A model generated the notes under the pieces. It made no database searches. It was given only the letters and a program-made list of their open reading frames with translations, and had not been told where the DNA came from. From Candidatus Multivoradales bacterium (GTDB taxonomy: Bacteria > Acidobacteriota > Thermoanaerobaculia > Multivoradales > JAHEKO01): a DNA stretch of 64,000 nucleotides. The DNA is taken from positions 1,216,001 to 1,280,000 of the forward strand of contig CBDCVR010000014.1 of assembly GCA_965223155.1 (NCBI GenBank), read 5' to 3'. Positions 18,601 to 21,197 of the stretch are shown here, piece by piece. The position numbers and the translations under genes are program-made. Each line of letters opens with the position of its first letter. Position 1 is the first letter of the stretch.

Positions 18601-18735
18601 GTCTAACCCCTCGCTGCACCGGACACCGTCCCGCGTGCTCCCGAGCCGCGTGTAGACTCGAGGCAGTGGTAGGGTCCGGAAACGTAGTTCTCGTTAGCAT
18701 CGGAGGCGGTGTCGGTGAGCTCAAATCCGTTAGAT
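18601..18735 (+). mobile_element. Integron attC site 1
   Basis: R'' GTCTAAC, L'' GCTGCACC, L' GGTGAGC, R' GTTAGAT. 135-bp imperfect palindrome (GGACACCG/CGGTGTC arms). Confidence 0.85.
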
Positions 18736-18750
18736 GCCGGAGTTGAGGCG

Positions 18751-18990
18751 TTGAGCCCTACGATTTTCCGTGAAGGCCCCTTCAGGTTCTTCTTTTTTTC
18801 GCGGGAGGAGTCGCGGTTGCATGTCCATATCGCCTCATCAGATGGCGAGGCCAAGTTCTGGCTAGAACCAGAGGTCGAATTGGCAAAGAATTTCCGCCTG
18901 AGCGAAAAGGACATCCGTCGAGTCCGACAGCTTATACTTGAGCGTGAGAGCGAGATTCGAGATGCTTGGAACAGTCACTTCGGCAGCTGA
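18751..18990 (+). CDS. DUF4160 family protein (predicted toxin), cassette gene
   Basis: TTG start. MSPTIFREGPFRFFFFSREE..HVH...GEAKFWLEP...W..HF. Confidence 0.85.
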   Translation: MSPTIFREGPFRFFFFSREESRLHVHIASSDGEAKFWLEPEVELAKNFRLSEKDIRRVRQLILERESEIRDAWNSHFGS

Positions 18991-19219
18991 GGTCACCAAT
19001 ATTTCACGCCATGGGTTTTGGCTACTGCTAGACGACCGTGAGCTGTTTCTGGCCTTCGAGGAGTTTCCTTGGTTCAAAGGCGCACCGGTCGAAGCGATTC
19101 TCGAGGTTGAGAGGCCTCAACCGCATCATCTGTTCTGGCCAGCCCTCGACGTCGATCTCGCCGTCGACTCAATCGAACATCCGGAGCGCTATCCGCTAAA
19201 AGCGAAGCTCGGCATCTAG
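18962..19219 (+). CDS. DUF2442 family protein (predicted antitoxin), cassette gene
   Basis: EVTNIS.HGFWLL, FEEFPWF..A, LFWPALDVDL, HPERYPL. Stop codon lies inside the attC2 R'' box. Confidence 0.85.
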   Translation: MLGTVTSAAEVTNISRHGFWLLLDDRELFLAFEEFPWFKGAPVEAILEVERPQPHHLFWPALDVDLAVDSIEHPERYPLKAKLGI

Positions 19220-19349
19220 CCAATCGCTGCACCGAACACCGCCCCTCACTTCGCTACACCGGGTGTAGGCTTCAGGTCAGTCGTTAGCTTCAACGAGTAG
19301 TTCTCGTTAGCGCAGGAGGCGGTGTCGGTGAGCTCAAGATCCATTAGCT
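19214..19349 (+). mobile_element. Integron attC site 2 (core boxes mutated)
   Basis: ATCTAGC...GCTGCACC...GGTGAGC...ATTAGCT. Shares GTAGTTCTCGTTAGC and GGAGGCGGTGTCGGTGAGCTCAA with attC1. Confidence 0.75.
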
Positions 19350-19352
19350 GGC

Positions 19353-19503
19353 GAGTTATCGTCAAATGTTGCGTACGGCTGACTCAGGCGGCGATCCGGT
19401 TCTTGGCTTCTCCGTCAACGAACTGGACTCCTCGGACAACGTTGGCCATTCGCCTGTAGCCCTGTAGACGGCGCCATCTTGTCTCGGCGCTCAGGCAGCA
19501 CGA
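19353..19503 (-). pseudogene. IS256-family right end with transposase C-terminal fragment
   Basis: SAETRWRRLQGYRRMANVVRGVQFVDG...AA* followed by an IR-like end (GAGTTATCGTCAAATGTTGCGTA on +). Confidence 0.65.
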
Positions 19504-19606
19504 AAAGCGGTGACAGATGAGATGAGTCGGTCGGTCTCCAGCTGGGACACTGTGCCAGTTGGAGATAACCAAGAATCGGCATCAGAGCCGAGAAAGGAGA
19601 CCGACC

Positions 19607-20620
19607 ATGGAGTATCTTGGCATCGATGTTCACTCGAAGTACAGCGAGGTGTGTGGCGTATCAGAAGACGGTGAGGTGACGGTTCGCCGGCGGGTTCCGA
19701 CGACCGAGACGGGCCTGCGAAGGTTCTTCGCCAATCGGGAACGCTCGCAGGTGACGCTCGAGAGCGGTCCGGTCACACCCTGGGTCTATCGACTGCTGTC
19801 TGAGCTCGGCCATGAGGTGATGGTGGTCAATCCACGCCGGGTACGTCTGATCGCGGAATCGACCCTGAAGACGGACGGAATCGACGCCGAGATCCTGGCT
19901 CGTTTGAGCCGGTTGGATCTGGGTTTGCTTCGACCAGTCTACCAGCGCACAGGTGAGGCCCAAGAGCTTCGGACGCGTCTTCGGGTCCGAACGAGTCTGG
20001 TGAAGACCAGGACCTCGCTGATCAACTCCGTACGCGGAACGCTGCGGGCACAGGGCTACCGAGTGCCCTCATGTCCGGCGAAGAGCTTCGTGGCTCGGTA
20101 CGCGTCGATGTCGGTCGAAGCCGGCCTGTTGGGAGCGCTCGAACCTCTGGTAACGACAATCGGCGAGCTGACCGATCGGATCCACCATCTCGAAGACGAC
20201 CTCATCTCCGAGTCGAGATCAAACGAGCTGGTCCGTCGGCTGCAGACGGTTCCTGGTGTGGGGCCTCTGGTGAGCCTTGCGTTCGTCGGCTGGATGGATC
20301 GTCCGGATCGGTTCGAGAAAAGCCGCGACGTCGGAGCGTGTCTGGGCTTGAGACCGTCGCTTCGCAGCTCAGGAGGGCATGAGGTCAGGGGCCGGATCAC
20401 TCGCGAGGGCGACTCGGAGATGCGCAGACTCTTGGTGCAGGCAGCTCATGCGGCGTTGAACTGTCGCAAAGAGTCGTCACTCAAGAGATGGGCTGAGGGC
20501 CTGGTCGAGAGGCTGGGTAAGGGCAAGGCCGTGGTCGCGCTAGCTAGGAAGATCGCGGTGTTGCTCCACAGGCTGTGGGTGACAGGTGAGAGCTTCCGAG
20601 CCTTTCCCAAGGCAGCGTAG
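19607..20620 (+). CDS. IS110-family transposase/recombinase
   Basis: GIDVH, LESG, KTDGIDA (DEDD RuvC), TVPGVG, GLRP..RSSGG, ALARK. RBS AAGGAG upstream. Confidence 0.95.
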   Translation: MEYLGIDVHSKYSEVCGVSEDGEVTVRRRVPTTETGLRRFFANRERSQVTLESGPVTPWVYRLLSELGHEVMVVNPRRVRLIAESTLKTDGIDAEILARLSRLDLGLLRPVYQRTGEAQELRTRLRVRTSLVKTRTSLINSVRGTLRAQGYRVPSCPAKSFVARYASMSVEAGLLGALEPLVTTIGELTDRIHHLEDDLISESRSNELVRRLQTVPGVGPLVSLAFVGWMDRPDRFEKSRDVGACLGLRPSLRSSGGHEVRGRITREGDSEMRRLLVQAAHAALNCRKESSLKRWAEGLVERLGKGKAVVALARKIAVLLHRLWVTGESFRAFPKAA

Positions 20621-20649
20621 AAGAGATAACTAGACGACCAACAAGCAAG

Positions 20650-20815
20650 GACGGATTGAGAGGTTCGATGACTCCGAAAGTATCCTTGGTGGCCCCGACA
20701 CCGTGTGACAGATGGGAGCATCGATTCCTAAACGGACGCAAAACTCACCATGCACCGGTTCAAAGAAGAACCCTACAGAGTGCGAATAGAAGCTCGTCCC
20801 AAGCCTCGATCCAAA
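20650..20815 (+). ncRNA. Predicted bridge/seekRNA
   Basis: Two stem/internal-loop/hairpin units. Loop 1 has AAGTATCCTT (reverse complement of the right flank) and GTGACAGA (left flank plus core). Boundaries approximate. Confidence 0.75.
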
Positions 20816-20911
20816 CCTAAGGAAAACTACAAAAAGAAGAAACGAAACTCTTGACGCCAACCGACCGACTCATAGAAGGATACTTATTCCGCTAGATCGA
20901 AGCCCTGAGAA

Positions 20912-21031
20912 TTGCGGCGCCACTCACGTACCGGCAGGCCGCTGGGATCGGAGCAGTTCGTCAAGGACCTCGAGCAAACGACCAAGAGGCGTCTTAGACC
21001 CCGGAAGGTCGGTAGGAAGCCAAGGGCCTAA
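20912..21031 (+). pseudogene. C-terminal fragment of a RAYT-like Y1 (HUH) transposase
   Basis: LRRHSRTGRPLGSEQFVKDLEQTTKRRLRPRKVGRKPRA*, followed by CTGTCACCGATTT (21040-21052). Confidence 0.65.
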
Positions 21032-21197
21032 TGGGTAACCTGTCACCGATTTACGCCAATTGCCAAGAGAAGGAGCAATTGAGCGTAGAAGAGAGTCGCA
21101 AACAGGACCGATAGCCTCCGCATCGCTCCAATGCCGTGAACTAGATACTCGTTCCAGAGGTACCGTGGAATACGGAGCTCGATCGGGGCGCAGAAAA

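Follow-up and report, generated by a model that had tools for sequence, protein, structure and literature searches.

Since 2024, the guide RNAs of the IS110/IS1111 family of insertion sequences (IS) have been described and predicted at scale (Siddiquee 2024, PMC11187229; Durrant 2024, PMC11208160), and for the IS1111 group in particular a bridge RNA was predicted in 93% of elements (PMC11208160). The seekRNAs of this group are reported to lie downstream of the transposase gene (tnp), to carry the segment matching the top strand of the target 5' of the segment matching the bottom strand, and to occur in short (70–100 nt) and long (145–170 nt) forms (PMC11187229). Here we describe a locus of this kind in a 64,000-nucleotide stretch of DNA (the window: positions 1,216,001 to 1,280,000 of contig CBDCVR010000014.1, assembly GCA_965223155.1) from Candidatus Multivoradales bacterium, of the phylum Acidobacteriota. 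Window positions 19517–20876 very probably hold an insertion sequence of the IS1111 group (IS110 family) that is intact and has been active recently, with a predicted bridge/seekRNA of two stem-loops that would guide its insertion. The element is a clear further example of an RNA-guided kind that is already known, and no novel type of system.

By their published description, ISEc11, ISPa11 and ISKpn4 (Siddiquee et al. 2024, PMC11187229) share with the window element a transposase of ~340 aa, subterminal inverted repeats and a long non-coding region downstream of tnp, and their seekRNAs, like the RNA predicted here, place a top-strand-complementary segment 5' of a bottom-strand one, with the two overlapping in the target. 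According to the same report, ISPa11 targets a repetitive extragenic palindrome (REP), as the window element does a REP-like repeat, and the natural retargeting of ISEc11 and ISXne4 parallels what we see between the window element and an 81%-identical sister; the size of the window RNA region fits both the short and the long seekRNA forms. The window element differs from ISEc11, ISPa11 and ISKpn4 in belonging to another phylum (the closest named record is an Acidobacteria metagenome-assembled genome, MAG), in having another target, and in being known here from sequence alone. With IS621, as presented in PMC11208160, PMC11208158 and 8wt6, it would have in common the two internal loops, a left guide for the bottom strand and a right guide for the top strand, a 2-nt core, a handshake-type pairing (at U20687) and an imperfect right donor guide. 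Unlike in IS621, the RNA lies downstream of the gene, the guide order in each loop is reversed, the core is AG and not CT, and the subterminal repeats are long; the two proteins are also distant (E = 6e-10, over a partial alignment). Finally, ISPpu9 and ISPpu10 of Pseudomonas putida (Pares-Guillen 2025, PMC12288879) are described as inserting, like the window element, at an AG in REPs that are paired in opposite orientation.

The insertion sequence proper is 1360 bp long on the plus strand (ATGAGATGAG ... CTCATAGA), with ends set by its copies and by the comparison of empty and occupied sites given below; an earlier note on this DNA had drawn it at 19515–20885, which now contracts to 19517–20876 plus one AG. 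Its transposase gene (19607–20620, plus strand), with AAAGGAG upstream of the ATG, encodes 337 aa with matches to PF01548 (8.5e-25) and PF02371 (4.5e-21), that is, a DEDD/RuvC-like N-terminal and an IS116/IS110/IS902 C-terminal domain, and scores 241 bits, against a cut-off of 140, with NF033542, 'IS110 family RNA-guided transposase'. Residues E52, D90 and D93 align with acidic residues of IS621 (8wt6) and ISCro4 (9t56), D7, within GIDV, aligns to ISCro4, and S255-G256 are the last two residues of GLRPSLRSSG (247–256), the GL-P----S(T)G serine motif; the roles of these catalytic residues are those given in PMC11208158. The left subterminal inverted repeat (19522–19535, ATGAGTCGGTCGGT) is 14 nt long, begins 5 nt inside the left end and is 100% complementary to the right one (20860–20873, ACCGACCGACTCAT), which stops 3 nt inside the right end, dimensions that fit the 7–17 bp repeats with short terminal extensions of the IS1111 group. 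The non-coding ends measure 90 nt on the left and 256 nt on the right, so that the longer one lies downstream of tnp, as the group, by the hallmarks defined in PMC11187229 and PMC11208160, requires. By its protein, its ends and its mode of insertion, the element belongs to the IS1111 group, with a predicted bridge/seekRNA, and the earlier note's assignment to that group holds on the protein family, the subterminal repeats and the presence of all 15 copies in one site and one orientation.

These copies furnish the insertion site. The genome (4.0 Mb, 15 contigs; G000) carries 14 full copies that are ~100% identical, 13 of them equal in length and one (L014) a base longer by end-to-end span, together with one copy split by an unrelated IS. 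All 15 sit in the same orientation between GGTGACAG and GATAC (GATGC in L013), and their farther flanks differ; looking at the flanks of other copies was a check that the earlier note itself had proposed, and it returned one shared site and no unrelated targets. Seventeen uninterrupted sites elsewhere in the genome read GGTGACAGGATAC, and no uninterrupted site there reads GTGACAGAAGGATAC, the version of the target with AGA-AG. In addition, two loci are present both empty and occupied (C14:574431 with its counterpart in C11, and C14:366085 with its counterpart in C7), the paired contigs being otherwise 98.9–99.8% identical to the chromosome and differing by the element and one AG. The occupied versions are thus longer by the element and a single AG, which makes AG the core, GGTGAC-AG-GATAC the target and CATAGA-AG-ATGAG the predicted circle junction. 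The earlier note had favoured a core of AG(A), a target GTGACAGAAGGATACTT (0 sites, against the 17 of GGTGACAGGATAC) and a junction CATAGATGAG; the actual target, GGTGAC-AG-GATAC(TT), is 3 nt shorter, and AG alone is repeated at the junction. The empty/occupied comparison reveals no target duplication except the shared core, which is consistent with site-specific insertion of the IS1111-group type. At the window locus, all on the plus strand, the left target half GGTGAC (19509–19514; the same in all 15 copies and in the 17 empty sites) is followed by the left copy of the core (19515–19516), the element, the right copy of the core (20877–20878), and the right target half, GATAC plus TT (20879–20885), of which GATAC recurs in 14 of the 15 copies and the next two bases vary. 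No empty-site joint for this particular locus occurs in the DNA contigs.

Signs of recent movement are plain: the copies are identical, the 337-aa frame is open in all five full copies that were inspected for it, insertion is polymorphic between near-identical contigs, and, in the DNA contigs, the interior of the IS is covered ~9x as deeply as its flank. It might nevertheless be proposed that the element is a fossil whose copies spread by duplication of repeat-bearing regions and not by recent transposition, and indeed the surroundings of several copies are repeated too (C2, C7 and C11 against C13–C15) and some have near-identical flanks (L005/L011 and L007/L010). We regard this as very improbable, given at least 10 clearly different flanks among the copies, two loci with and without the element in otherwise near-identical DNA, all 15 RNA genes scoring identically with the covariance model R1 introduced below, and the copy identity, open frames and nine-fold depth just described.

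Several observations on the surroundings of the copies belong here. The small contigs C2, C7 and C11 are alternative versions (94–99.8% identical) of chromosomal regions in C13–C15 that differ in IS occupancy, and could represent strain heterogeneity or segmental duplication. The IS that interrupts one copy (L015/L018) lies at G000:C7:11411-12782, is 1372 bp long, encodes a 435-aa transposase of Mutator/IS256 type (PF00872), made an 8-bp duplication, CGTCACTC, and has five near-identical copies, the one in C7 included, besides one 87%-identical partial copy. A remnant of this type, encoding the last 40 aa (75% identical), occupies window positions 19387–19506 on the minus strand and abuts the left flank of the window copy; upstream of it, at 18709–19219 on the plus strand, lie two small overlapping open reading frames (ORFs), a DUF4160/DUF2442 pair (PF13711, PF10387). 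Mobile elements crowd together within 11 kb at G000:C13:297-308 kb, in what looks to be a local hot spot: two copies of the main IS, one of the sister IS and one of IS256 type, along with several repeat pairs that are free.

Downstream of the gene, the minimum-free-energy fold of 20650–20810 gives two stem-loops. The first, predicted to bind the target (20665–20724), has a basal stem, an internal loop and an apical hairpin (20687–20703); the second, putatively donor-binding (20734–20799), has an outer stem GGACG/CGUCC and an inner hairpin (20751–20784). Every string that the earlier note had listed lies where it had placed it, and its first stem, TCGATG (20665–20670) and CTCC (20672–20675) against GGAG (20715–20718) and CATCGA (20719–20724), is recovered by the fold, as is the stem that it gave for the second unit, GGACG (20734–20738) against CGTCC (20795–20799). 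The folding energy is unremarkable against shuffles (z = -1.19 and -0.74), and since it is not significant we used co-variation instead. The relatives for this and for the guide comparisons came from a protein search of genomes across the phylum, a single-protein search of contigs having found two loci, of which one was of use. We seeded a covariance model, R1, with 20649–20811 (the extent of the RNA region, plus strand, as the model matches it), the sister IS (L016) and L020, an 85% aa-identical relative from an Acidobacteria MAG, and built it from four well-supported helices and the outer stem of the second stem-loop. The outer helices of the minimum-free-energy fold (model columns 8–15 with 79–81 and 157–161) are broken in L016 and L020 and were therefore omitted.

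Over 33 sources, R1 found one match each in 29, four of these being training sequences or a copy of one; among the 29 non-training sources, 21 matched at E≤0.01 and 25 at E≤1, with three matches partial and none in the remaining four (L021, L044, L047 and L048). All matches lie directly downstream of the transposase gene, on the gene's strand, and the proteins concerned are 34–56% identical to the query. Of the cells in an alignment of 26 distinct rows (A2), 94.4% pair, whereas shuffling lowers the figure to 73.3% (none of 500 shuffles attains the real one) and sliding the partners lowers it to 30–45%; 24 of the 31 pairs have changed on both sides, with compensatory changes in 9 of the 10 pairs of helix 1, the basal stem of the target loop, and also in helices 3–5, which form the donor stem-loop. 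An unfitted approach, MAFFT followed by RNAalifold on 18 of the full-length matches, again yields two stems, the basal one of the first stem-loop and the inner one of the second (helix 4), with compensatory changes in 9 of 14 predicted pairs. Both stem-loops and compensatory changes thus emerged from the folding and covariance check that the earlier note had suggested. The L028 row of the family alignments comes from an unpublished genome (G152), and no statement made here rests on it alone.

Within its own genome, R1 finds 17 matches, every one inside an IS copy, the 15 of the main element scoring identically; none is solo, unlike in ISPpu9, for which solo RNA copies and extra small RNAs (Asr9 and Ssr9) are described (PMC12288879). 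An 11-mer of the RNA at window position ~2079 proved to be chance, R1 finding one match in the window. A scan of 19300–21100 with Rfam 15 at E≤10 returned no bridge-RNA family and only three chance-level miRNA/snoRNA matches.

The predicted RNA is tied to its site by the internal loop of the first stem-loop. On its 5' side, the right target guide (20678–20687, AAGUAUCCUU) complements GATACTT, the core AG and the last base, A, of the element: AAGTATCCTT is the exact reverse complement of AAGGATACTT at 20876–20885, as the earlier note had seen, and this 10-mer occurs in the 64-kb window at these two places only (0.03 expected; two occurrences in 0 of 100 shuffles). On its 3' side, the left target guide (20705–20714, GUGACAGAUG) has the same sense as GTGAC, the core AG and the first bases, ATG, of the element; the identity of GTGACAGA (20705–20712) with 19510–19517 that had been pointed out before extends to 10 nt, and GTGACAGATG is found at 19510–19519 and 20705–20714 only (0.16 expected; two occurrences in 2 of 100 shuffles). 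The top-strand match therefore stands 5' of the bottom-strand match, the same order that is reported for IS1111 seekRNAs (PMC11187229).

These guides follow their targets across the family. The AGAU after the left target guide is conserved family-wide, the variable part of that guide tracks the left flank in relatives, and the loop position of the right target guide likewise tracks the right flank; L020, for example, departs from the guide of the window element in two bases, of which its flank matches one and not the other. Right guides match their own flank over 9–11 nt in L027, L035, L042, L034 and L032, and left guides over 9–12 nt in L038, L025, L043, L046, L036 and L023. Counting non-redundant loci, which leaves out duplicates (L017, L051 and L050), partial loci (L029, L030 and L041) and two with extracted loop segments shorter than 8 nt (L039 and L033), the right guide fits its own downstream flank over ≥8 nt in 7 of the 19 loci, compared with 2.9% of the 380 pairings with guides from other loci, and the left guide its own flank in 9 of 20, compared with 4.0% of 400; in loci below this threshold, one arm matches over 5–7 nt only. 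The earlier proposal of a two-loop RNA region downstream of the ORF, its first loop carrying both target halves, is thus borne out, as a prediction, by conserved structure and by guide/target co-variation.

One could still suppose that the protein alone recognises the site, and that the identities between loop and flanks are captured or copied pieces of the target with no guide RNA involved, a view with which the unexceptional folding energy would agree. It seems to us scarcely credible: two distinct segments, one on each side of a single conserved internal loop, match the halves of the target on opposite strands and overlap on the core, the same positions vary with the flanks both in the sister IS, where ends and stems are unchanged, and in distant relatives, and the family is RNA-guided by experiment (PMC11187229, PMC11208160).

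The second stem-loop appears to treat the ends of the element in a similar manner. On its 3' side, the left donor guide AUAGAAG (20786–20792) has the same sense as the right end ATAGA plus the core AG and equals 20872–20878, a 7-mer that occurs twice in the 4.4-kb locus L002 with 0.20 expected; the earlier note had read ATAGA here, which has to be lengthened to ATAGAAG, and its CTCA on the other side (20744–20747) stands. Across the family this side keeps the consensus A-T-R-G-A-A-G and reproduces the right end of its own element together with the core, the variants ATAGA, ATGGA, AAAGA (L046), AGACA (L040) and an AA core (L035) each matching their own right ends. On the 5' side, the putative right donor guide, CUCACC (20744–20749), is the weakest of the four guides, with CUCA complementing the left-end TGAG. 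Eleven of 19 loci carry here the complement of bases 2–5 of their left end, compared with 48 of 278 non-cognate pairings, with CTCA/TGAG, CCCA/TGGG, ACCA/TGGT and AGTA/TACT among the pairs formed with an element's own end.

Here a further alternative deserves a hearing, namely that the element and its target loop are as we describe them but that the second stem-loop does not bind the donor, the protein recognising the ends through the subterminal inverted repeats and the hairpin serving in folding, processing or termination. In ISEc11 a short seekRNA of 82 nt alone sufficed for transposition, with the role of the long form left open in that report (PMC11187229), and in the window element just 4 nt of the left end are matched on the 5' side of the second loop, where 8 of 19 relatives lack the expected 4-mer. 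We nonetheless think this improbable, as the 3' side agrees with the right end and core for 7 nt and changes with that end (ATAGA, ATGGA, AAAGA and AGACA all match their own ends), the 5' side follows the left end in several cases (11 of 19 own, against 17% of non-cognate pairings), and the helices of the second stem-loop carry compensatory changes.

Several points weigh against our reading of the locus as an active element guided by a two-loop RNA. To the ordinary folding energy must be added that A2 was fitted to R1, so that its structure counts lean towards that structure, and that the three close sequences alone yield just 2 compensatory pairs, a number equalled by 45 of 500 shuffles. One arm of the target loop is poor in several relatives (5–6 nt for the right guide in 11 of 19 and for the left guide in 5 of 20), and the right donor guide is weak, with 4 contiguous nt and a mismatch adjoining the core, a feature in which it resembles the right donor guide of IS621, reported to pair discontinuously too (PMC11208160). 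The circle joint was not seen in the DNA contigs, which drop rare forms. A circle-specific promoter is not evident either, the sole match, TTGACG-N16-TAGAAG, being identical in the circle and in the integrated form. Its TTGACG (20851–20856, plus strand) resembles a -35 hexamer directed outward over the right end. Of 23 relatives, 20 have TTGAC at a distance of 16–18 nt upstream of their own right end, and the hexamer may serve as the -35 of the type of junction promoter that the introduction of PMC12288879 reports for the family. The candidate for a circle-specific -10, GAAGAT at 18-nt spacing, matches 3/6 and is our own reading only.

The sister IS, 81% identical and present in two copies (L016, G000:C13:297852-299225, and L017, G000:C15:372319-373687), offers a natural case of altered guides. 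Its ends and RNA stems are kept and its target loop reads AAAAGGGUU on the 5' side and GUGCCAG on the 3' side; its flanks are ACCCTTTT/GGTGCCAG, with L017 having on its right the reverse complement of AAAAGGGUU and L016 having GUGCCAG on its left. The sister sits in a second repeat family, GGTKCC-AS-CCYTTTC, whose empty sites read GGTTCC-AC-CCYTTTCG, again in inverted pairs. Within its target loop the left guide specifies an AG core and the right guide AC; the junctions of L017 have AG on the left and AC on the right, and the corresponding empty sites have AC. Some 60 bp downstream of L016 there is also an inverted 43-nt fragment of the IS left end (L019, G000:C13:299287-299329, minus strand).

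In the window element itself, U20687, 3' of the right target guide, would pair with the last base of the element, A20876, and not with C19514 of the target, which would mirror the handshake guides described for IS621 (PMC11208158). The left target guide likewise continues as AUG, the first three bases of the element, and the two arms of the target loop match the integrated junctions over 10 + 10 nt, against 7 + 9 nt for the empty target. We put forward tentatively, and as something rather unlikely on present evidence, that IS1111 recombinases can recombine unequal donor and target cores, leaving unlike copies of the core (unless mutation came later), and that the pairing at the junctions hints at a second, bottom-strand 'handshake'. 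If true, unlike core copies would record which strand of the heteroduplex survives. In the portions consulted of the literature on handshake guides and IS1111, we found no description of a bottom-strand handshake for IS1111.

The target repeat, GGTGACAGG[A/C]TAC, belongs to the host lineage and not to the IS. Of 18 other genomes in the same family, 11 carry it, in as many as 68 copies, and many of the copies form inverted pairs 34–91 bp apart; a reversed control pattern gives 0–1 matches. In one genome of the same genus there are three copies of the repeat, with no transposase match found at E≤1e-40. The target motif is part of a REP/REPIN-like repeat found throughout the host bacterial family. 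In the genomes G409 and G413 it also forms short direct arrays with 36–61 bp spacing, besides the inverted pairs (G413:C9:1706080-1706349 and 2358484-2358568 are examples), one genome holding 68 copies. In the window, a degenerate second copy lies inverted at 21035–21047 on the minus strand (GGTGACAGGTTAC, 1 mismatch; G000:C14:1237047). Between it and the occupied repeat is a 40-aa open frame (20909–21028, plus strand; ...GSEQFVKDLEQTTKRRLRPRKVGRKPRA) with no Pfam match and no paralogue in the genome, so that a resemblance to transposase C-termini finds no support. We also considered the target as a strong hairpin, but no more than 8 of the 32 sites have ≥7 of 9 flanking bases complementary (7.3% in cross-paired controls); since strongly complementary flanks are few, we call it an imperfect palindrome. 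Nor did a REP-associated tyrosine transposase emerge as the maker of the repeat, the sole Y1 transposase of the genome being a 163-aa IS200-type gene without the repeat beside it.

Put together, the locus suggests the following way of working. The single gene would supply a DEDD/serine recombinase, and the 256-nt region downstream of it a two-stem-loop bridge RNA (seekRNA) of ~160 nt. In the first stem-loop, the internal loop would carry the two target guides, overlapping on the AG core where strands are expected to be exchanged. The second stem-loop would do likewise with the ends of the excised circle once joined, ATAGA-AG (right end plus core) standing on its 3' side and its 5' side pairing less exactly with the left-end TGAG. 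The complex of recombinase and RNA would then insert the circle, in one orientation, into GGTGAC-AG-GATAC. The analysis itself demonstrates the copies, their shared site with its core, a conserved structure of the RNA region, and the co-variation of guides with targets and with ends; production and binding of the RNA, the circular intermediate and the chemistry we infer from the published mechanism of the family, and the programmability that the earlier note ascribed to the recombinase is likewise a prediction.

For the field, the element leaves knowledge of the mechanism unchanged and will not surprise a specialist, and we offer it as a useful worked example. It supplies, from a phylum that has been little studied, a bridge recombinase of IS1111 type with a clean annotation, and for the annotation of this genome it accounts for 15 identical repeats and several small alternative contigs. 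The family alignment, in turn, separates the guide positions of the RNA from those of the scaffold. One genome displays four predicted guide segments, an AG core, a natural target, 17 free sites and a retargeted sister, and because all of these can be read from that single genome, the element is a convenient candidate for testing the bridge RNAs of IS1111 type, which are less well characterised than that of IS621.

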